Source: a virus | Lineage: Duplodnaviria; Caudoviricetes | IMG/VR virus record: IMGVR_UViG_3300031836_000002 | Location: 60,210 to 124,209 of that record | Length of the DNA: 64,000 nucleotides | Direction: 5' to 3' (one strand) | Shown: positions 11,402-20,057 of the stretch, one piece after another | Layout of the letters: each line of letters opens with the position of its first letter | How positions within the stretch are numbered: position 1 is the first letter of the stretch | Program-made: the position numbers and the translations under genes | The notes under the pieces: generated by a model | The model's input: the letters and a program-made list of their open reading frames with translations, nothing else | What the model was told of the DNA's origin: nothing | Database searches by the model: none

Positions 11402-11593
11402 CTAGCTTTCTCTGTTGTTGTGGAGGAATAGCTGGATCTCATCCGTGCCTGCCACATCGAAATCGTAGGGACCATCTGGGAGTTCCACAGTGTCCGGATA
11501 CGTTTCTCGATCTGAGAATGTCACAAGGATCGACTCGCCCCCGTCTCCATGCCGGGGTAGGTACTTCCGCGTGGCTTCTATCTTGGGCTTCAT
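11402..11593 (-). CDS. hypothetical protein
   Basis: ATGA-coupled ORF. Confidence 0.5.
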   Translation of the reverse strand: MKPKIEATRKYLPRHGDGGESILVTFSDRETYPDTVELPDGPYDFDVAGTDEIQLFLHNNRES

Positions 11594-11883
11594 GGCTCTA
11601 ACTGGTAGCTGCCCACCAGTTGGTCGAAGTCCCCGGCTCGCACGAGGATCAGGTCAGCGGTCTCCACGAGGGCCTTGACGTTAGCAATGGTGTACTCGAA
11701 CCCGATGACACTGGACAAGGCAGAGCTACCGGGCTTGTAGCTCTCCATCAGCCTAAGGGTGATGGGCTTGGCGCGACTCTTGGGATTGTGCTTCACCTCC
11801 CACCAGCGGCTGTGTCCGGCTTTGGGGAGACTTTTCTTCAGCTGCTCACGCAGGTGGGAGGTGATCGGCTCTTTGGTGGTCAT
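11590..11883 (-). CDS. hypothetical protein
   Basis: ATG 11883 just downstream of a GGCGTACAA motif. Confidence 0.6.
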   Translation of the reverse strand: MTTKEPITSHLREQLKKSLPKAGHSRWWEVKHNPKSRAKPITLRLMESYKPGSSALSSVIGFEYTIANVKALVETADLILVRAGDFDQLVGSYQLEP

Positions 11884-11913
11884 GATCTGTTGTACGCCTA
11901 TCTCCGGGCGTAG

Positions 11914-11952
11914 AAAAGGGCTGGCCTTCCGAGAATACGGTTTGACCAGCCC
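11914..11952 (-). terminator. terminator ending the tRNA array
   Basis: GGGCTGGTC...GGCCAGCCC hairpin plus TTTTCT. Confidence 0.7.
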
Positions 11953-12004
11953 AGCGACCCAAAGCGCCCCCACCGGGCCGCGTGGTCAGTCTATACGACT
12001 ACTG

Positions 12005-12078
12005 TCCCTCAGGGTGGACTCGAACCACCGCGTCACCTTGTTATGAGCAAGGGGCCTTACCAGCTTGGCTACCGAGGG
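12005..12078 (-). tRNA. tRNA-Met(CAT) (or Ile2)
   Basis: Cloverleaf; CCTTG-CTCATAA-CAAGG. Confidence 0.9.
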
Positions 12079-12198
12079 AAGTGAGGGAGGCTCGCACCCG
12101 TCGATGCGAGCGTCACCCTCGTGCTCGTTTCACTGCCTCGATGAGCTTCGAGTGAGGGACCTTCTCCCTCAGGCAGTCGTGCCCGCAATTCTTCTTTG

Positions 12199-12272
12199 TG
12201 GATCCACAGGGACTCGAACCCTGAACCATGTGCTTGCAAAGCACGCGCTCTACCAGTTGGAGCTATAGACCC
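12199..12272 (-). tRNA. tRNA-Ala(TGC)
   Basis: Cloverleaf; loop TTTGCAA; G3:U70. Confidence 0.92.
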
Positions 12273-12283
12273 TCGATCATGCG

Positions 12284-12357
12284 TAGCCTCAACAGGATTT
12301 GAACCTGTGACTTCCTCCTTATCAGGGAGACGCTCTACCAGACTGAGCTATGAAGCT
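12284..12357 (-). tRNA. tRNA-Ile(GAT)
   Basis: Cloverleaf; loop CTGATAA. Confidence 0.92.
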
Positions 12358-12385
12358 TTGTCGCGGATCCGCCGCGCCGGTATTG

Positions 12386-12457
12386 TCCCCTCGACTGGAT
12401 TCGAACCAGTGGCCAAGAGATTAGAAGGCTCCTGCTCTTCCTCTGAGCTACGAAGGG
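12386..12457 (-). tRNA. tRNA-Arg(TCT)
   Basis: Cloverleaf; loop CTTCTAA. Confidence 0.9.
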
Positions 12458-12460
12458 AAG

Positions 12461-12534
12461 TGGAGACGGAACCCGGAATCTAACCGGGGTAAGAAGCTTT
12501 GCAGGCCCCTGCCTAGACTCTCGGCCATTCCGCC
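12461..12534 (-). tRNA. tRNA-Cys(GCA)
   Basis: Loop CTGCAAA, U73, CCA encoded; T-loop TTAGATT. Confidence 0.88.
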
Positions 12535-12544
12535 AAATTCTTGT

Positions 12545-12838
12545 TTAGGTCTCATCCTCTGGACGTTCCTCGAATGTGATAGCCACATCCTTTCCCAGCA
12601 TAGAGTCGAACCAAGCGGCTGCTTCAGGGTTCCCTACGGTGAGTTTGACCTCTCCCGATGGGGTGGCGGATGACCACGCCTCGTTCTGAGGCCCTTTAGC
12701 TCCTGATACAGGAGACATGACTACTTCGATGCGGGGGGCTGGATTCGCCCAACCACTAGCGTGAGCCTGAGAGACCGATGCAGCGAAACGCTTGACTTCA
12801 CGGACGTAGAAACGGGCGGTGACTTTGGATATGGACAT
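12545..12838 (-). CDS. conserved hypothetical protein
   Basis: GAGGAGG RBS before ATG 12838; NEAWSSATPSG.V.L.V.NP motif. Confidence 0.75.
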   Translation of the reverse strand: MSISKVTARFYVREVKRFAASVSQAHASGWANPAPRIEVVMSPVSGAKGPQNEAWSSATPSGEVKLTVGNPEAAAWFDSMLGKDVAITFEERPEDET

Positions 12839-12940
12839 AGTTGCCTCCTCGGCAATAGTTGAATTGAACTTGAGGAGGTCTGCGAACCAGATTTGAGCCT
12901 GCGTCCGAACCTGTGCCCAGTGTAGCTCATTTCTTCTTTG

Positions 12941-13012
12941 TAGGCCTTGAGGATTCTGCCACCTCGACCCTCCGCTTAAAAGGCGGATGCTCTGCTTCTG
13001 AGCTAAAGGCCC
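12941..13012 (-). tRNA. tRNA-Lys(TTT)
   Basis: TCCGC-CTTTTAA-GCGGA; atypical T-loop. Confidence 0.85.
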
Positions 13013-13017
13013 TAGCG

Positions 13018-13089
13018 CTCCGGGGGCTGGGGTCGAACCAACGCCACCTGATTCCAAAGATCAGCGTGCTGCCATTACACCACCCCGGA
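13018..13089 (-). tRNA. tRNA-Gln(TTG)
   Basis: Cloverleaf; loop CTTTGGA. Confidence 0.9.
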
Positions 13090-13163
13090 TTGAAGAGTCC
13101 ACTACCTGTTAGGCCGGTCTTGGATAGGGCTAGCCAGCCGTGTGCGCTGCCCGTGGACTCTAG

Positions 13164-13234
13164 CTCCCCACCAAGGATTCGAACCTCGACAAACTGGCTC
13201 AGAACCAGTTGTGCTGCCGTTACACCAGCGGGGA
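13164..13234 (-). tRNA. tRNA-Gln(CTG)
   Basis: Cloverleaf; loop TTCTGAG. Confidence 0.9.
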
Positions 13235-13307
13235 ATATAGCAAGACGTGAGTATTAGTACCGACCGTCTTCGCAGGGATGATTGATGTTTGTCCCCACGT
13301 CTTACCG

Positions 13308-13379
13308 TGCCCTTCGAGGGATTCGAACCCCCAACATACGGTTCCGAAGACCGGCGCTCTTCCGTTGAGCTAGAAAGGC
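13308..13379 (-). tRNA. tRNA-Arg(TCG)
   Basis: Cloverleaf; loop CTTCGGA. Confidence 0.9.
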
Positions 13380-13433
13380 AGACCCGGCGCTGATCCAACA
13401 GCACTCCTGAATCGAACAGTCCGTTCCGGGGTT

Positions 13434-13496
13434 GTTAGCGCTCTGCCATTGAGCTACCGATCAAATCGGCTGGGACTCGAACCCAGATACTCTAAC
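13434..13496 (-). ncRNA. circularly permuted tRNA-like RNA (YrlA/Y-RNA-like topology)
   Basis: Order GTTAG, variable region, T arm, closed acceptor hairpin, TA, D arm, G, CTAAC. Confidence 0.75.
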
Positions 13497-13498
13497 CG

Positions 13499-13570
13499 TG
13501 CCCTTCGAGGGATTCGAACCCCCGGCCCTCTCATCCGTAGTGAGATGCTCTTCCGCTGAGCTAGAAAGGC
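13499..13570 (-). tRNA. tRNA-Arg(ACG)
   Basis: Cloverleaf; loop CTACGGA. Confidence 0.92.
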
Positions 13571-13652
13571 ATGTGATGTGCCCGCCAATTACCTCAGGCA
13601 CATCGTCGTCAATTTTTCCTCCACTCCGAGTAAAATTGAAAAACCCTCGTCG

Positions 13653-13720
13653 TAACGTTGGCTGGATTCGAACCAGCGACCACCTCATGAGGAAGCTCTG
13701 CCTACCTGAGCTACAACGTC
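13653..13720 (-). ncRNA. tRNA-like RNA with truncated anticodon arm (CAT)
   Basis: Intact acceptor, D and T arms; only 17 nt between the D and T arms. Confidence 0.7.
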
Positions 13721-13819
13721 TATCCCGTGGGGCAATTACTCCCACTCGTCCAGCTTCTGAAGCCTTTGGATCCCCACGTCATGGCCATGCCGCGGTTCCT
13801 CTCCAGCTCCGTCTACTCG

Positions 13820-13891
13820 CTCCCCATCTTGGATTCGAACCAAGGACCAATCGGTTAACAGCCGAACGCTCTGCCTCTGAGCTAACAGGGA
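13820..13891 (-). tRNA. tRNA-Asn(GTT)
   Basis: Cloverleaf; loop CTGTTAA. Confidence 0.92.
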
Positions 13892-14128
13892 TTACGTGAG
13901 ATGGAAGCTGTCCTGCGTACTCAGGACCTTAGTGCTTCGTCGTTTCACCTATGGGGAGTACGACATTCCCCACCGGTAGGACACCCACTTGCCCTTTGTC
14001 TTCTCCAGAGCTTCGAGACACTGAAGAGGTGATCCGGAGATTTACGCACTCCGACAGTGACCTCATTACAGAGGATCGCGTGCCAGCTTTTCATTTTTGA
14101 AAGGTCTTGAGGCTGGATCCGTTGACCT
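13892..14128 (-). ncRNA. putative structured ncRNA (~235 nt)
   Basis: No ORF; multiple hairpins and complementary loops. Confidence 0.5.
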
Positions 14129-14130
14129 TG

Positions 14131-14202
14131 TGCTTCTCAGAGGACTCGAACCTCTGACCGGTGCCGTGTAAAGACATTGCTCTGCCGCTGAGCTAGAGAA
14201 GC
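14131..14202 (-). tRNA. tRNA-Val(TAC)
   Basis: Cloverleaf; loop TTTACAC. Confidence 0.9.
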
Positions 14203-14203
14203 A

Positions 14204-15067
14204 TTAGGCAGGAGAGAGTTTCTCCGCCGCCGCACGGTACCGATCTAGAATGTCTGTCTTCTGGATGTGGTCCCGTTGCGGGTAGAACGTGTAATGACTG
14301 ACCAGCGCGTTCCCGGCGATGGCAGTAGGCCGGTTCAGTCGCGTTGGCATCTCGATGGAGTGCCACGCCTCATCGTCAGTGTGTTCGATGTAGCCGGGAG
14401 GAGTGCAGTGGTTGTGATACTCCTCGGAGAGGCTGGCGAAACAGCTCACGCTAAACTGCTGCCCTAGTGGGAGCTGCACGTCGTGATAAAGAAACAGCTT
14501 GCTGACTGTTCCGGCTTCCACATGGTCTAGGAGAAGGTTGTGCATCTTTTCCGCGAATGGTCCGTCTGCCCAGCCAATTGGGTCCATGCAGTACGGCTGC
14601 ACTTCTCCCCACTCGCGGGGCACACAACCTTGCATCTGGAGGTACCACGTGGATATAGCGTTGTTCCAGATGATGGGGAAGGTCACGAAGGCTGAGCTGG
14701 AGAGCTTCGACTTCACCAAAGTAGCAAGGGCGTCCTCGTGGATGTAAACGATGTCGTCATCAAATCGGACGTAAACCGTGTTCGGCTCCACACAGTTCTC
14801 GAAGAAAACTCTTGTGTTGTACTGCTTCTTGTGGTTGAGATTCCGGGTGGCTGGCGCGTACTTCTGTGTGATCCAGTCATGCTCAGCTGCCAGCTTGTCG
14901 GCGTAGGAGACATCCGAGACCTGATCCGGGTCGGTGTTCATCCAAAGCTGCCACTCATCCAAGACTCCTCTTTCGTGGTCCCTTTGGAGGTAAGAGAAAA
15001 GGATGGATGCAGTCGCCACCCTGCCGTATGGTGTGCAAGCAACTACCCGGCTTTCCAGAACTGTCAT
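14204..15067 (-). CDS. GT-A-like glycosyltransferase
   Basis: TPYGR N-terminus, YVRFDDDIVYI DxD motif; start 15067 (leaderless) or 15139. Confidence 0.65.
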   Translation of the reverse strand: MTVLESRVVACTPYGRVATASILFSYLQRDHERGVLDEWQLWMNTDPDQVSDVSYADKLAAEHDWITQKYAPATRNLNHKKQYNTRVFFENCVEPNTVYVRFDDDIVYIHEDALATLVKSKLSSSAFVTFPIIWNNAISTWYLQMQGCVPREWGEVQPYCMDPIGWADGPFAEKMHNLLLDHVEAGTVSKLFLYHDVQLPLGQQFSVSCFASLSEEYHNHCTPPGYIEHTDDEAWHSIEMPTRLNRPTAIAGNALVSHYTFYPQRDHIQKTDILDRYRAAAEKLSPA

Positions 15068-15197
15068 GGGACCAACAGTAGCAAACTCTGGAATCTCATA
15101 CCCGTGGTTTTGGAGGCCCTTTGCGCTGTCGGAGGGCAAGTCCGTCTCATTCCTGAGAGATCTCTCTTTTCCTGTTGGACTGTTCGAGATAACATCG

Positions 15198-15272
15198 GGC
15201 CTCTGGAGGGATTCGAACCCCCGACCGTCGCTTTACAAGAGCGTTGCTCTGGCCAAACTGAGCTACAAAGGC
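15198..15272 (-). tRNA. tRNA-Thr(TGT)
   Basis: Cloverleaf; loop CTTGTAA. Confidence 0.9.
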
Positions 15273-15275
15273 ATG

Positions 15276-15544
15276 TGCTGAGGAGATCGTGAGATATCGT
15301 GCGCTCAGCTCGCTCTGGCCTTTCGGTATCCAGACCCATGCCACAGCGGGCGAAGGAAAGTCCACCCCCTGCAACTCCGACAAGTTGTTCGGTCAGGGGG
15401 CTTCACATCTGCGCTGCCTACGAGAGGCTGCGAGAAAAAGTGCACCGGATGCCCTTGCAAAGGCGCTCCTTCCGAGGGAGCCAGACGGACTCAAGTTGTT
15501 CGTGATGTCTGAGCCGAACGCTGGTGACTAACTGCGTCCTTCCG
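15276..15544 (-). ncRNA. putative structured ncRNA (~270 nt)
   Basis: Many stems with G-U pairs favouring the minus strand, GAAA tetraloop, internal repeats. Confidence 0.5.
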
Positions 15545-15615
15545 AGGAGTACGCGGGGATCGAACCCGCGATGTCTGTTTGGAAGACAGACGTGTTACCG
15601 CTACACCAGTACTCC
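15545..15615 (-). tRNA. tRNA-Gly(TCC)
   Basis: Cloverleaf; loop CTTCCAA; U73. Confidence 0.92.
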
Positions 15616-15701
15616 GTGAGCGCATTTAGCGGGTGCGCCTGACCATCCCGAAGAGAGGATACAGCCTCTCAATCCCAGCTCCCTGTATGAGGCTGGATCT
15701 G

Positions 15702-15773
15702 TGGGCCTGCGTGGAGTCGAACCACGTTCTCTTGATTAAGAGTCGAGAGCATCACCACTAATGCTTCAAGCCC
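15702..15773 (-). tRNA. tRNA-Lys(CTT)
   Basis: Cloverleaf; loop CTCTTAA. Confidence 0.88.
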
Positions 15774-16108
15774 CGATATTTTGCTATGTTCTCCGGTAAC
15801 TGCATCCTCTCGAATGTTCTAATTCGATGACAGGTACCACAAACTACGTCACATTTTGCAATCTCAGCCATGATCCGGTTTATGGACTTACCCATGAGAG
15901 CTGCCACTGTAGTAGCGGGATCGCTATCACGGTTCACCCTGTGGTCAAACTCTAATCCGGCGTGATGGGCTGAGTACCTGCAATCCGCACACCCCTGAGA
16001 CACCTTGTACTCCCGAACCACCATGACGTTCTTTTGATACCGGCCTCGCATGTACGCTGCCATGTAATCTCGGTACTCTTGGGAGCTTTTATCTCTGGGT
16101 CTACTCAT
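15758..16108 (-). CDS. HNH endonuclease
   Basis: CADC, LEFDH, KCDVVCGTCHRIRT motifs; stop codon lies inside tRNA-Lys(CTT). Confidence 0.9.
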   Translation of the reverse strand: MSRPRDKSSQEYRDYMAAYMRGRYQKNVMVVREYKVSQGCADCRYSAHHAGLEFDHRVNRDSDPATTVAALMGKSINRIMAEIAKCDVVCGTCHRIRTFERMQLPENIAKYRGLKH

Positions 16109-16131
16109 GCAGTAAGAATACCTTATCTAAC

Positions 16132-16220
16132 TTGGCGGAGAACTGAGGGCATGATCCCCTCACCTTGCGGTGCCAACCGATTAGCAATCGGTGCCGGTGC
16201 GCCTGCCCGGTAAGCTCTCC
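16132..16220 (-). tRNA. tRNA-Ser(GCT), atypical
   Basis: Loop TTGCTAA, long variable arm, G73-CCA; odd T-loop and bulged acceptor. Confidence 0.8.
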
Positions 16221-16221
16221 A

Positions 16222-16314
16222 TGGCGGATGAAGTAGGTCTCGAACCCACACGGGTATTACCCCCAACTGTTTTCAAGACAGCGCCCGATAGGCCGAAGCT
16301 CGGGTTATTCATCC
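16222..16314 (-). tRNA. tRNA-Ser(TGA)
   Basis: Loop CTTGAAA, long variable arm, G73-CCA. Confidence 0.88.
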
Positions 16315-16338
16315 TTGTGTTTTTCTCTGTGGAATTAG

Positions 16339-16366
16339 AAAAGCCCCAGACTGTTAGGTCTAGGGC
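16339..16366 (-). terminator. attenuator terminator 2
   Basis: GCCCTAGAC-CTAACA-GTCTGGGGC hairpin plus TTTTCT. Confidence 0.85.
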
Positions 16367-16396
16367 CGCATTAGCGAGATTCGAAAATCTGCTGAG

Positions 16397-16471
16397 TTAG
16401 GACAGCCCTGAAGTACTGCGATTGGCCACAATGGCCGATCCCATTACTTGCTTGGACTGGTTTTTTCTCAT
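16397..16471 (-). CDS. leader peptide 2 MRKNQSKQVMGSAIVANRSTSGLS (leaderless uORF)
   Basis: ATG 6 nt after TAGGGT; codons match downstream tRNAs; 3' end is complementary to the terminator stem. Confidence 0.8.
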   Translation of the reverse strand: MRKNQSKQVMGSAIVANRSTSGLS

Positions 16472-16477
16472 GCGTTG

Positions 16478-16507
16478 ACCCTACTACTACTTTCAATCGA
16501 GACGCAA
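16478..16507 (-). promoter_or_regulatory. sigmaA-type promoter of tRNA block 2
   Basis: TTGCGT-N18-TAGGGT. Confidence 0.7.
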
Positions 16508-16532
16508 GTGCATCCCGAAATTCTTCTTTGAT

Positions 16533-16668
16533 TGGACGATGCAGACGATTCGAACGCCACTTCCAACACTCTAGGCTGGCGAGCTGCCGCTGATGCTCTC
16601 CGGGATACGAACGCGCGCTCGACATCCTCCGGTGCTGTCTTTGGTCTACCTGATTACTCCATACATCG
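16533..16668 (-). ncRNA. expanded tRNA-like RNA with encoded CCA
   Basis: 7-bp acceptor CGATGTA/TGCATCG-T-CCA, D, anticodon-like and T arms, ~63-nt insert before the D arm. Confidence 0.7.
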
Positions 16669-16670
16669 AG

Positions 16671-16755
16671 TGCTCATCCCCGGACTTGAACCGGGACGAG
16701 GGTTACCCCTCACAGCCACCTCAAGGCTGCGTGTCTGCCATTTCACCAGACGAGC
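16671..16755 (-). tRNA. tRNA-Leu(GAG)
   Basis: Loop TTGAGGT; long variable arm. Confidence 0.92.
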
Positions 16756-16825
16756 TTATGCTGGGGTAGGTGGTCCATTCCTACCCCTGAGGTGGCATGC
16801 CCTTGGAGGAGCACTGCCACCTTTG

Positions 16826-16899
16826 TGTCTCTCCTCGGATTCGAACCGAGAACCTTTGGATCCTAAATCCAACGCCTCTACCAGTTGGGCTAGAAAGAC
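16826..16899 (-). tRNA. tRNA-Leu(TAG), short variable region
   Basis: Loop TTTAGGA; 5-nt variable region. Confidence 0.88.
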
Positions 16900-16921
16900 A
16901 TGTGGATTGATCGAGCTTCAG

Positions 16922-17029
16922 AAGGCCGGGAGGATTCGAACCTACACACCAGCGCGTTTCCCCTCGGGCTACCAAGGGTACTAAACGCCGCCTCTGCCAC
17001 TTCAGCTTTTTAATAGTGCGAACCAACCT
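16922..17029 (-). ncRNA. expanded tRNA-like RNA
   Basis: Acceptor AGGTTGG/CCGGCCT, GGTTCGAATCC T arm, D-like arm, elongated anticodon-position arm. Confidence 0.6.
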
Positions 17030-17071
17030 ACGTCCGCTCGATCAATCCCGATGAGTAGCTATCTCATCTTG

Positions 17072-17144
17072 TGCCCACCGAGAGGATCGAACTCTCAGCC
17101 TTCCCGGCTTCAACGGGACGCTCTTCCACATGAGCTTGGAGGGC
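17072..17144 (-). tRNA. tRNA-Phe(GAA)
   Basis: Cloverleaf; loop TTGAAGC. Confidence 0.9.
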
Positions 17145-17219
17145 ATATAGCACACCGACATGGAACGCCTCCTCTGACTCAGCGTATATACCGGTGTGCT
17201 AGAACGTCAAAGACGTTCG

Positions 17220-17302
17220 TGACAGGAGAGGGATTTGAACCCCCACAGTCGAAGACCACTGGGTTACAACCAGCTACCCTGCGCCAATAGGTGAGTCCTG
17301 CC
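17220..17302 (-). tRNA. tRNA-Tyr(GTA)
   Basis: Loop TTGTAAC; long variable arm. Confidence 0.88.
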
Positions 17303-17354
17303 TTGGTGCGGACACTTACGCGGCCCGCTTACGACCATATTTGGATGGCTTCCG

Positions 17355-17426
17355 TAGCGCGCACGGGATTCGAACCCGCACCGTAGAACCTGAAAAGCTC
17401 CAGAACTGCCGTTATTCTAACGCGCC
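17355..17426 (-). tRNA. tRNA-Glu(TTC)
   Basis: Cloverleaf; loop TTTTCAG. Confidence 0.88.
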
Positions 17427-17494
17427 ATAGGTAGAGACCGCCAATAACGCGGCTGGAAGGCCTGACACCCTTCTCACTCACCCTCTACCTGCCG

Positions 17495-17568
17495 TGACCT
17501 GCACGGGACTTGAACCCGTAACCTCCAGCTTGAGAAGCTGATGCAACTGCCAATTGTGCTAGCAGGCC
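17495..17568 (-). tRNA. tRNA-Glu(CTC)
   Basis: Cloverleaf; loop TTCTCAA. Confidence 0.9.
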
Positions 17569-17707
17569 ATATTGGAAGTTTCTGTGGTGCATCCTCGATG
17601 GGACCCTTGTGGGGGCTACCCCCTTCGCTGGTTTAGCGGCCAGCTACTCGGCACGTCCACTCCCTCAACTATTTTCTCCCATGCACTGGGACTGGATAGC
17701 TCCATAG

Positions 17708-17780
17708 CGGCCCTAGTCGGATTTGAACCGGCAACCTTCGCGCAGACAACGCACTGCTCTACCAATTGAGCTATAGGGTC
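17708..17780 (-). tRNA. tRNA-Asp(GTC)
   Basis: Loop TTGTCTG; G73. Confidence 0.85.
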
Positions 17781-17857
17781 AAAGCCAGTTTCTTCTTGCC
17801 ATGGAGTCTGGCATCCACGCCGTCCTTTTCTGATTGTGCCTCAGCGGTATCGGAAGT

Positions 17858-17934
17858 TGGGGTGAACAACGGGGATCGAACCCGCGACATCCGGCTCCAC
17901 AAGCCAGCGCTCTGCCTACTGAGCTATGCCCACC
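17858..17934 (-). tRNA. tRNA-His(GTG)
   Basis: G-1:C73, loop TTGTGGA, CCA encoded. Confidence 0.93.
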
Positions 17935-17983
17935 ATGTGACAGGACCACAAGGATCCTGTCTGTTCTCATTTCTGAAAACTTG

Positions 17984-18057
17984 TACGGATAGCAGGATTC
18001 GAACCTGCGATCTCTTGGTCCCAAACCAAGCGCCTTACCAAGCTGGGCTATACCCGT
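17984..18057 (-). tRNA. tRNA-Pro(TGG)
   Basis: Cloverleaf; loop TTTGGGA. Confidence 0.92.
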
Positions 18058-18096
18058 ATGTTGTTGCATTCACTGTGTAATTATCAAGGTGCAATG

Positions 18097-18127
18097 AAAA
18101 AACCTCCTTGCCCGGTGGCTAGGAGGT
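18097..18127 (-). terminator. attenuator terminator 1
   Basis: ACCTCCT-A-GCC-ACCG-GGC-A-AGGAGGT plus TTTTT. Confidence 0.88.
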
Positions 18128-18153
18128 CTGCTGCGTTTGAGCGCGTGCTACCT

Positions 18154-18198
18154 CTAGCCGAAGTAATCTTCCGGCAGGAGGTGTGAGAACGTGTTCAT
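18154..18198 (-). CDS. leader peptide 1 MNTFSHLLPEDYFG (leaderless uORF)
   Basis: ATG 7 nt after TAAGGT; codons match downstream tRNAs; stop region is complementary to the terminator stem. Confidence 0.85.
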   Translation of the reverse strand: MNTFSHLLPEDYFG

Positions 18199-18205
18199 GT
18201 AACAG

Positions 18206-18235
18206 ACCTTAGTTGCGTGAGCTGACGGTTGTCAA
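18206..18235 (-). promoter_or_regulatory. sigmaA-type promoter of tRNA block 1
   Basis: TTGACA-N18-TAAGGT. Confidence 0.8.
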
Positions 18236-18253
18236 CTCCATTTTCAGGTTTCG

Positions 18254-18327
18254 TTGCGGAGGTGGGATTTGAACCCACGACCTCTAGGATATGAGCCTAG
18301 CGAGCTGCCTAACTGCTCTACTCCGCG
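18254..18327 (-). tRNA. tRNA-fMet-like (CAT)
   Basis: C1:A72 mismatch; loop CTCATAT; only two terminal G-C pairs in the anticodon stem. Confidence 0.85.
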
Positions 18328-18362
18328 TCGTACTATAAGGATTGCATGTGCAATCTAATTTG

Positions 18363-18833
18363 TCAAGAGTTGATGAGTTCGAGGTAGTCGAACTTGGTTC
18401 CTAGGCAATCGTGGATCGTGACACCTAGGCCCTGAAGCTCGACTACGTTTCCGTTGTAGACGAATGCGTATTCCGGGATGGCTCCGACACCAAGGACGAA
18501 GCGGTTTCCCTCCTCAGTGAGCTTCCAGAAGCCTGCACGGCCTCCGTCTGGTCTCACGCTGTAGTTCTCTTCTTCGATCAGTCCCCACCAGCTGGCTTGG
18601 GAGATCTCGTGAGTGTCTCCGGGAAGCGAGGGGGTGTGCTGATAGTCCTCAGACCCTCCTGCGTGATGCAGCTGGATCAAGGCCTTGGCAATGGTGGCAT
18701 GTAGCTTGCGCCGGTACACCTTGGCGTTCTGTCCACAGCAAGGGCACTTGGCTCCTTCTGACACGTTAGTGAGGAGCCACTCCTTCGCCATCAAGAGGGT
18801 GGTATGTGCCCCCGTAACCATTCTTTTCAGCAT
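18363..18833 (-). CDS. hypothetical protein (CxxC, winged-helix-like)
   Basis: CPCCGQ and WGLIE...W.LTEEG motifs. Confidence 0.65.
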   Translation of the reverse strand: MLKRMVTGAHTTLLMAKEWLLTNVSEGAKCPCCGQNAKVYRRKLHATIAKALIQLHHAGGSEDYQHTPSLPGDTHEISQASWWGLIEEENYSVRPDGGRAGFWKLTEEGNRFVLGVGAIPEYAFVYNGNVVELQGLGVTIHDCLGTKFDYLELINS

Positions 18834-18864
18834 GCTGTTCCTTTTCGTTGACCTAACAAAATCG

Positions 18865-18984
18865 TACTGAAGACGGGATTCGAACCCGCATGCTACGTGT
18901 CGCGTTCACGTGCTTGCCTCTACACCTTGACCTCCGCCTCTAAAAGGCGTAGCCACACACTGCCAGCTTTTAAGTCACTCCAGT
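18865..18984 (-). ncRNA. expanded tRNA-like RNA
   Basis: Acceptor ACTGGAG/CTTCAGT, canonical T arm, ~88-nt structured core. Confidence 0.6.
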
Positions 18985-19073
18985 GGGGTGTTCTTCAGTT
19001 CCGGCCCATGTTTCAGCTTGCGCCCTTCCAGATCAACGGGGGACAGCTTCGGCAATGAGCTAATGCCTATGCG

Positions 19074-19147
19074 CGGGATGTGGTGGATTCGAACCACCGG
19101 CTTCGGTTTTGGAGACCAACGTGTTAGGCCACTAACACTAACTTCCC
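19074..19147 (-). tRNA. tRNA-Trp(CCA)
   Basis: Cloverleaf; loop CTCCAAA. Confidence 0.9.
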
Positions 19148-19148
19148 T

Positions 19149-19326
19149 TGGCGGCAGGACTCTCATTGAAGAGCTTCTCCTCTAGACTTCTTGCTCCATT
19201 TCCTAGGTTGGGAGCTGCCCATTTTCGAGGTTGGGGCTTCCGGGTGGATCCACATCTGGTCTAAGTTCTCGGTTCCGCGGAGGTCCGAAATTCTTCTACT
19301 GATCGTGGCCCGGTCAACACCTGCCG
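19149..19326 (-). ncRNA. CCA-ended structured RNA with twin hairpins
   Basis: Closing stem CGGCAGG/CCTGCCG-CCA; T-like hairpin; two hairpins with near-identical loops. Confidence 0.55.
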
Positions 19327-19401
19327 TAGCCCTCCTCGGATTCGAACCGAGACGTTACTGGTTTTTGAGACCAGCTCCTCTACCGATTGGGATAGAGAGC
19401 C
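19327..19401 (-). tRNA. tRNA-Leu(CAA), short variable region
   Basis: Loop CTCAAAA; 6-nt variable region. Confidence 0.88.
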
Positions 19402-19492
19402 AAGCGGAACCTGCCACTTCTGGGGGGAGAGCTTTAGGTTCCTAGCTGCTTCTCCGAGACTGAGGAGACTGTACGAGAAGCAGTTATCTATA

Positions 19493-19771
19493 TTACGATG
19501 ATGAACCATCGTTTGAAAAGGGTGTGGCAGAAACTTCTTCAAGTCCCGCCTCTTTGATGAACAGATCCAAAGTGCCCATGACTCCAGAGGTGGCCTGAGC
19601 ATCCTTACCTGCCTGCCTTAGGCGCTTCGCAATGATGGGTAGGGCAAACGTCACGGCCTCTTCAGCCTGAGCTGCCCACACCTCCCTGAGGAGTTCAAGG
19701 TCGATATGAAATTCTATCTTTGAGGCATTATCCTCTGAGAACCTCACAGCAATTTCTTGCGCTAATGTCAT
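19493..19771 (-). CDS. hypothetical protein
   Basis: AAGGA RBS; ATGA coupling. Confidence 0.6.
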   Translation of the reverse strand: MTLAQEIAVRFSEDNASKIEFHIDLELLREVWAAQAEEAVTFALPIIAKRLRQAGKDAQATSGVMGTLDLFIKEAGLEEVSATPFSNDGSSS

Positions 19772-19926
19772 TGGTTCCTTCTCTCGATCACGGCAGACCA
19801 GATCCAGAAACCAGAACCAGCTGCCATGAGGATAAACACGATGGGATACGCTGCGGACTCGATGAAGCAGGAAGCTAGCAAGTACAGAGCGCCTGCCCAA
19901 ATCAGCAACCGGTGCTCCCGCCTCAC
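19768..19926 (-). CDS. small membrane protein (52 aa)
   Basis: GTGA-coupled ORF with two hydrophobic helices. Confidence 0.55.
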   Translation of the reverse strand: MRREHRLLIWAGALYLLASCFIESAAYPIVFILMAAGSGFWIWSAVIERRNQ

Positions 19927-20057
19927 TGTACTTCCTCCACATCCGCGAACAACGAGTGGACCTGAACAGTCAGTGCGGTTCCGTTTGCCGTGTGTCCTAC
20001 TACTCGGGTTACGGTAGGCAAGCTGTTTACAAACCGATTGAAATCTCTGTTGTCCAT
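19923..20057 (-). CDS. small hypothetical protein (44 aa)
   Basis: GAGGAGG RBS behind a promoter repeat. Confidence 0.55.
   Translation of the reverse strand: MDNRDFNRFVNSLPTVTRVVGHTANGTALTVQVHSLFADVEEVQ

Follow-up and report, generated by a model that had tools for sequence, protein, structure and literature searches.

Discussion of phage tRNA genes is usually confined to codon usage or to escape from the cleavage of host tRNAs, and, to our knowledge, little has been established on how phages control these genes. The locus described here raises the question in a concrete form. A long tRNA array of a phage is interrupted by a 355-nt spacer, separating tRNA-Leu(GAG) from tRNA-Ser(TGA), in which a promoter-like sequence, a small open reading frame and a terminator-like hairpin follow each other, and it has to be asked what this arrangement is for. 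In our judgement it is likely that the spacer carries a ribosome-mediated (leader-peptide) transcription attenuator, called attenuator 2 below, which would gate the second block of tRNA genes. As far as can be read from the DNA, the phage probably makes this block mainly when the codons of the leader are read slowly.

The window, i.e. the whole stretch of 64,000 nt that was analyzed, is the right part of a virus record of 124,209 bp with direct terminal repeats and has a G+C content of about 55%. The sequencing runs in which the window was found at full identity were from brine metagenomes of several studies and from one aquatic metagenome; they were DNA runs, and no RNA run was among those listed. 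When the segment 16100-18400 was compared across four runs, the sequence was found to be identical; one run had single-base deletions, mostly in homopolymers, which look like assembly errors. The relatives of the phage and its gene content point to a host in the Actinobacteria. Thirty tRNA genes lie on the minus strand between 12004 and 19401 of the window. ARAGORN detected 28 of them; the other two, tRNA-Lys(TTT) (12941-13012) and tRNA-Ser(TGA) (16226-16314), were overlooked by it and were recovered with Rfam and relaxed ARAGORN. Nine tRNAs, with the identities Asp, Glu, Phe, His, Leu, Pro and Tyr, are located between a sister element, attenuator 1, and attenuator 2. The large features of the array are:

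12004..16314, minus strand: second tRNA block, 18 tRNAs with three interspersed ORFs, directly behind attenuator 2; first gene tRNA-Ser(TGA), last gene tRNA-Met (12004-12078).
18093..18235, minus strand: attenuator 1, directly upstream of tRNA-Pro, of the same design as attenuator 2.

Several other genes of the array deserve mention. One tRNA of the second block (13652-13720, minus strand, 69 nt) has the anticodon TCA and was labeled tRNA-SeC by ARAGORN; it could be an opal-suppressor-like tRNA. A 116-residue ORF (15758-16108, minus strand) has tRNA-Ser(GCT) on one side and tRNA-Lys(CTT) on the other; at the DNA level it shows 68% identity to genes of Streptomyces phages (Braelyn and others) that are annotated as HNH endonucleases, and it is probably a mobile nuclease inserted into the array. 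The protein encoded at 14204-15139 (minus strand), also within the second block, has 252-311 residues and no Pfam hit; more than 450 homologues were found in phage contigs and Streptomyces genomes, and in one contig the homologue is flanked by an epimerase/dehydratase-family gene and a glycosyltransferase gene. Between tRNA-Trp and tRNA-Met the array encodes a 156-residue protein (18363-18833, minus strand) with a conserved Cys-Pro-x-Cys, which has no Pfam hit and is 31% identical to gp89 of the Microbacterium phage Magritte, found at the corresponding place; homologues are widespread among large actinophages, of which many lack tRNAs. Rfam also gave weak, sub-threshold matches to the Y RNA-like YrlA among the tRNAs (13440-13487 and 12331-12415, minus strand), and in Magritte a Ro-like RNA-binding protein is encoded beside the tRNA array.

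Attenuator 2 consists of the following parts, given here in the order of the proposed transcription and with the observations that identify them:

16502..16507, minus strand: -35-like hexamer TTGCGT; TTGCNN at equal distance in all five phages compared.
16478..16483, minus strand: -10-like hexamer TAGGGT, 18 nt past the -35; TA(G/C)(G/C)GT in all five.
16397..16471, minus strand: leader ORF, 24 codons and TAA stop, with the ATG at 16471; homologous ORFs in four relatives.
16454..16460, minus strand: region 1 (CCAGUCC), partner of region 2; MFE folds of all five sequences and RNAalifold consensus.
16420..16440, minus strand: inner hairpin P1, inside the region 1:2 pairing; folds, and compensatory changes between lineages.
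16402..16409, minus strand: region 2, AGGGCUGU, 5' strand of the antiterminator, over the last ORF codons; core GGGCUGUC invariant in all five.
16377..16390, minus strand: hairpin P2, five pairs and a UUCG loop, within the antiterminator; a hairpin here in all five, with differing sequences.
16358..16369, minus strand: region 3, 3' strand of the antiterminator and 5' strand of the terminator; folds, consensus fold and terminator scan.
16342..16351, minus strand: region 4, 3' strand of the terminator stem; stem pairs changed on both sides.
16333..16342, minus strand: U-rich tail UUUUCUAAUU; terminator scan.
16327..16332, minus strand: CCACAG motif, past the terminator and before the first tRNA; conserved in all the phages, as is ACAG(A/T)G at 18075-18090, in the corresponding position after attenuator 1.

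The anatomy proposed in the initial annotation was borne out. TTGCGT, 18 nt and TAGGGT are found at 16507-16502 and 16483-16478 (minus strand) with the ATG 6 nt further on, and the 24-codon ORF at 16471-16397 has the residues and codons that had been listed. The antiterminator strand, too, is where it had been placed: AGGGCUGU (16409-16402) is complementary to GCGGCCCU within 16369-16358, in the 5' half of the terminator, over 7-8 pairs, and the UUCG-capped hairpin (16390-16377) stands between the two strands. Since the ATG is only 6-7 nt past the -10 hexamer in the phages compared (6 nt in this one), the mRNA is predicted to be leaderless. By terminator scan, a hairpin of 10 pairs (16367-16342, minus strand) is followed by a U-rich tail, so that this phage has the G+C-rich hairpin and the U run of an intrinsic terminator. 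The conserved promoter, ORF and antiterminator that precede the hairpin are left unexplained by an intrinsic terminator alone. The CCACAG and ACAG(A/T)G motifs may be a processing signal. An 84-residue ORF lying over the leader in another frame (16371-16625) was set aside; it has no Pfam hit and is unlike the Magritte protein at that place.

Homologous elements are present in four related actinophages with genomes of ~125-135 kb. The closest isolated phage is Magritte, whose laboratory host is M. foliorum NRRL B-24224; its DNA polymerase is 46.5% identical to that of the phage studied here (one pair compared), and the genes of its annotated tRNA array come in the same order. The other three are G001, an IMG/VR genome of 135 kb found by one of four motif scans of viral contigs, the other three of which gave only chance matches or known copies; L237, an IMG/VR contig of 128 kb that was reached via the 156-residue array protein; and L385, a phage contig of 126 kb that had been binned with a bacterial MAG, which was the one new relative among 97 matches of a motif scan of genome contigs. 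A motif scan of metagenome contigs gave 24 matches, all of them chance. As an anchor the 156-residue protein also yielded L219 (see below), most of its homologues being from phages without tRNA arrays; the 14204-15139 protein was discarded for this use, its homologues occurring in unrelated contexts without tRNAs. Attenuator 2 is unchanged in two near-identical genomes, L002 and L003. The copies compared represent only three independent lineages with attenuator 2.

In every phage the element lies directly upstream of the first tRNA-Ser of the second block. Its upstream neighbour varies, being a tRNA or unrelated CDSs, and the downstream tRNA-Ser is constant; in Magritte it comes after an unrelated CDS and directly before tRNA-Ser(CGA). 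Both leader ORFs are absent from the Magritte annotation. On the opposite strand, over the promoter and leader of the attenuator, that annotation has a 32-residue CDS, gene 99 (L006:11091-11189), which is probably a mis-call.

The layout of the promoter is the same in all five phages: TTGCNN, a non-conserved spacer of 17-18 nt, TA(G/C)(G/C)GT, 6-7 nt and the ATG. The leader ORF has 19-24 codons in each of them. The distances from the ATG to region 1 are 12, 18, 18, 15 and 15 nt, and those between regions 1 and 2 are 51, 42, 48 and 48 nt, with 41 nt in G001. Insertions and deletions within the ORF are multiples of three, the single exception being a 1-nt deletion in G001. A stop codon (TAA or TAG) is situated directly past region 2 in four of the five copies; in G001 the deletion shifts the frame and a TAG is found directly before region 2. 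In both positions the stop would allow a terminating ribosome to mask region 2. Between lineages the identity of the leader peptides is low (4-11 identical positions), and their composition is kept. A good U tail is seen in this phage, in Magritte and in G001; that of L237 is weak, and L385 lacks one.

When each of the five sequences was folded singly, the same shape was obtained, with the 1:2 stem round P1, then P2 and then the terminator. The RNAalifold consensus has 35 pairs; compensatory changes were found at seven, most of which belong to the inner hairpin and the upper terminator stem; the alignment used for it replaced the first MAFFT alignments, in which region 1 of this phage was misplaced. 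If the 5' part was masked and region 4 omitted, the best fold was in all five cases the 2:3 antiterminator round P2, with -16 to -26 kcal/mol. With region 4 present, the terminator form was more stable than the antiterminator by ~10-14.5 kcal/mol, and this energy relation resembles that of the trp attenuator. The invariant GGGCUGUC strand can pair either with the earlier segment of the ORF or with the 5' half of the terminator, region 3 being GGACAGCCC or CGGCCC across the copies. Region 2 is the same in every copy, so that covariation cannot support the 2:3 pairing; its support is the complementarity kept in each copy. By folding, then, the five copies share three mutually exclusive pairings, 1:2, 2:3 and 3:4, the last being the terminator.

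Conserved folding could also be expected of an RNA element that works without translation, such as a small RNA gene under a promoter and terminator of its own, or a switch in which a protein, a metabolite or a tRNA (as in a T-box) acts on the long 5' hairpin, the ORF being incidental. Compensatory changes in the 5' hairpin and in the terminator fit such an element, and so does the comparison of Magritte with G001, where the ORF is nearly identical, synonymous sites included, and P2 has been replaced; identity at synonymous sites is compatible with a constraint on the RNA as well as with one on coding. The frameshift tolerated near the end of the ORF in G001 is a further point in its favor. On the other hand, the spacer gave no Rfam match at E values up to 1, the T-box included, an ATG is kept at the predicted start in all five copies of attenuator 2 and in six of six copies of attenuator 1, and the indels respect the reading frame with the one exception mentioned above. 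Taking into account also that the amino-acid roster described below is confined to the ATG frame, and that two unrelated leaders each match their own tRNA block, which an RNA-only model does not predict, we regard this explanation as unlikely.

The composition of the leader speaks for the leader-peptide attenuator. In this phage 23 of the 24 leader residues are amino acids for which a tRNA is encoded downstream. Such a share was found in 3 of the 398 small ATG ORFs of the genome (the leader included) and in 0.1% of random 24-codon windows of genes. Ten distinct downstream anticodons are matched exactly, by 11 of the leader codons, and 18 codons can be read if standard wobble is allowed; at least 10 distinct exact anticodons were matched in 0.7% of the controls. 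At the level of amino acids, the comparison with small ORFs that had been proposed as a check came out above chance, and the nominal chance of the composition of the leader is ~1e-3.

The initial annotation had gone further and held that the leader samples the anticodons nearly one by one. The match to the amino acids of the tRNAs stands, but the exact complementarity is explained by the peptide and the codon usage alone. When synonymous codons were redrawn according to phage usage with the peptide fixed, a mean of 11.5 exact complements was obtained, as compared with the 10 observed (after the initiator). Nor was any anticodon tuning beyond amino-acid identity detected with all relatives and both leaders (P for at least the observed number 0.33-0.99). 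It follows that the match of the leader is real for amino-acid identity, not for the isoacceptor. Codons for both Lys and both Gln isoacceptors are indeed present here, but this is peculiar to this phage. Rare codons are not favored, and the leader codons are mostly common ones. Leu is the sole residue out of the set in this leader, as had been noted, but a few out-of-set residues (Phe, Leu, Tyr) occur in the leaders of the relatives.

What is common to the relatives is the roster of amino acids. All ten of Ser, Thr, Gln, Arg, Ala, Lys, Gly, Asn, Val and Ile occur in each of the five attenuator 2 leaders, and these are the identities of the tRNAs downstream of attenuator 2. The probability that a random peptide of similar length and phage composition contains all ten is 0.004-0.024. 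The roster is restricted to the ATG frame. Survival of all ten residues over the observed divergence has a probability of 12-16% per lineage, and is in itself only mildly unlikely. Fisher tests of leader against amino-acid class gave, phage by phage, p = 6.6e-5, 0.007, 0.0024, 5.9e-5 and 1.4e-4. The claim that the leader residues mirror the downstream tRNAs was thus strengthened: the correspondence is conserved in relatives, and, as described next, a second attenuator matches the tRNA block that precedes this one.

A scan of the arrays for the promoter-plus-ATG pattern gave a second match in every phage, directly upstream of tRNA-Pro. This element, attenuator 1, has the parts TTGACA, 18 nt, TAAGGT, 7 nt, ATG, a 14-codon leader (18198-18154), an antiterminator and terminator, and a U6 tract, and its antiterminator takes in the stop codon. 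The architecture folds in six of six phages. In the leaders of all six, all seven of Asp, Glu, Phe, His, Leu, Pro and Tyr are represented, in differing order; for a random peptide of similar length and phage composition the probability of containing all seven is 0.001-0.004, and survival of the seven over the observed divergence has a probability of 1-5% per lineage. The leader keeps a His codon in Magritte, G001 and L385, where no tRNA-His was found in the block. In the whole 124-kb genome there are two sites with the promoter-plus-ATG pattern, each heading a tRNA block, as compared with 0.15 in shuffled genomes; the pattern was derived from these same two sites.

It could be argued that all this is mere punctuation of the array, in which the hairpin ends the upstream block and the promoter restarts transcription, the small ORF and its composition being due to chance. 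Promoters and terminators are needed by tRNA arrays, the region holds many small ORFs, and in the further relative L219, which has the first tRNA block only, a plain terminator is found after tRNA-Leu(GAG). In attenuator 2, however, the promoter lies upstream of the terminator and not behind it, and the ORF with its start and stop positions is kept in five phages. The chance calculated for the composition (~1e-3), the partition of the amino acids between the leaders (p down to 6e-5) and the complementarity of the antiterminator in every copy also argue against punctuation, which we consider very unlikely. Conservation of the presence and length of the ORF would also be expected if the small ORFs encoded functional micropeptides and the hairpins merely ended their mRNAs. 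Peptides of 14-24 residues in which the order of residues is poorly conserved while the composition is kept, whose C-terminus can be cut by a frameshift as in G001, and which share no motif beyond that encoded by the invariant RNA strand, make this explanation highly improbable.

The leader-peptide attenuator was therefore taken as the preferred reading: there is a short ORF with a usable, predicted leaderless start, and its codons correspond to the products of the genes that it would control. In the mechanism that we envisage, a SigA-type promoter would produce a leaderless transcript starting at the ATG, and a ribosome would translate the 24-codon leader while RNA polymerase moves ahead. If decoding is fast, the ribosome at the stop codon would cover region 2, regions 3 and 4 would pair, and transcription would terminate ~130-140 nt from the start. 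If, in contrast, the ribosome is slowed anywhere within approximately the first 15 codons, region 1 would be masked and region 2 left free. Region 2 could then pair with region 3 round P2, the terminator would not form, and the polymerase would enter tRNA-Ser and the rest of the block. Without translation, both 1:2 and 3:4 would form and transcription would stop. Because the amino acids in the leader are those of the downstream tRNAs, shortage of any such charged tRNA would be expected to increase expression of the entire block; the tRNAs made in this way would restore decoding speed and close the loop. The hairpin of attenuator 2 would also stop transcripts coming from the upstream block, since the ORF is internal in these and has no evident ribosome-binding site.

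The two attenuators might together form a self-tuning tRNA supply, in which each block is on only when its own set of amino acids is decoded slowly, and the sorting of the tRNA genes into blocks evolved together with the two sensor peptides. We put this forward tentatively, as a possibility that we hold to be somewhat less probable than its opposite. The triggers might be a host tRNA pool unsuited to the phage, or the cleavage or depletion of host tRNAs, be it in the course of infection or through a defence directed at tRNAs.

If the leader-peptide attenuator is true, the leader, in naming the amino acids of the tRNAs that follow it, would sense decoding speed directly and couple it to the production of tRNAs. 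Attenuation in the style of the trp operon would then extend from enzymes to the translation apparatus, and to viruses, and the sorting of tRNA genes into blocks would be explained. The elements would also provide natural parts reporting the supply of many aminoacyl-tRNAs at once. As Magritte is an isolated carrier with a laboratory host, the idea is directly testable.

A search of the full-text literature found no description of a leader peptide or attenuator associated with phage tRNA genes or arrays. The nearest parallels are the multivalent leader-peptide attenuators of the amino-acid operons of enterobacteria, such as thr (Thr and Ile codons) and ilvGMEDA (Ile, Leu and Val), to which trp, his, leu and pheA may be added. 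The phage element shares with these the short leader ORF and four regions, with the 1:2 pairing, the 2:3 antiterminator and the 3:4 terminator followed by a U tract. In both, the codons name the end products of the operon and, in the phage by prediction, a terminating ribosome at the stop codon covers region 2 and more than one amino acid is sensed. Unlike the enterobacterial attenuators, the phage elements stand before tRNA genes and not before genes of biosynthetic enzymes. Their rosters cover seven or ten amino acids, most of which occur singly or a few times instead of in runs, their mRNA is predicted to be leaderless, and there is no sequence homology.

T-boxes are leader RNAs of Gram-positive bacteria in which the choice between terminator and antiterminator depends on tRNA charging; such an RNA recognizes a single uncharged tRNA directly, with no translation involved, and carries a conserved T-box sequence. 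A choice between terminator and antiterminator is predicted for the phage as well, but the signal there is a frame-specific ORF of many amino acids. An Rfam search of 11500-20000 at E values up to 1 gave only tRNAs and weak, unrelated matches.

Two systems of mycobacteria provide precedents in the host phylum. For the uORF of whiB7 it is reported that stalling leads to antitermination, that the composition of the uORF sets which amino-acid starvation is sensed, and that the attenuator is activated by knock-down of tRNAs, of synthetases or of amino-acid synthesis (10.1101/2023.06.02.543512). The actinobacterial setting and antitermination caused by uORF stalling, as proposed for the phage, are shared features. 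The whiB7 uORF differs from the phage element in being chromosomal, in being enriched for alanine and not matched to downstream tRNA genes, and in controlling a stress-response transcription factor. Leaderless mRNAs are common in Actinobacteria, and polycysteine leaderless short ORFs at the 5' end of mycobacterial operon transcripts are reported to act as amino-acid-responsive attenuators via ribosome pausing (10.1101/834739). A leaderless short ORF at the 5' end of the transcript is also predicted for the phage. The polycysteine ORFs sense a single amino acid, in contrast to the phage leaders, and they differ as well from the phage element in that the latter has a terminator hairpin and is followed by genes that are not translated. 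Attenuators 1 and 2 thus differ from the known attenuators in that phage tRNA genes would be controlled, in the breadth of the roster, and in occurring as a pair, each member of which covers the amino acids of one block.
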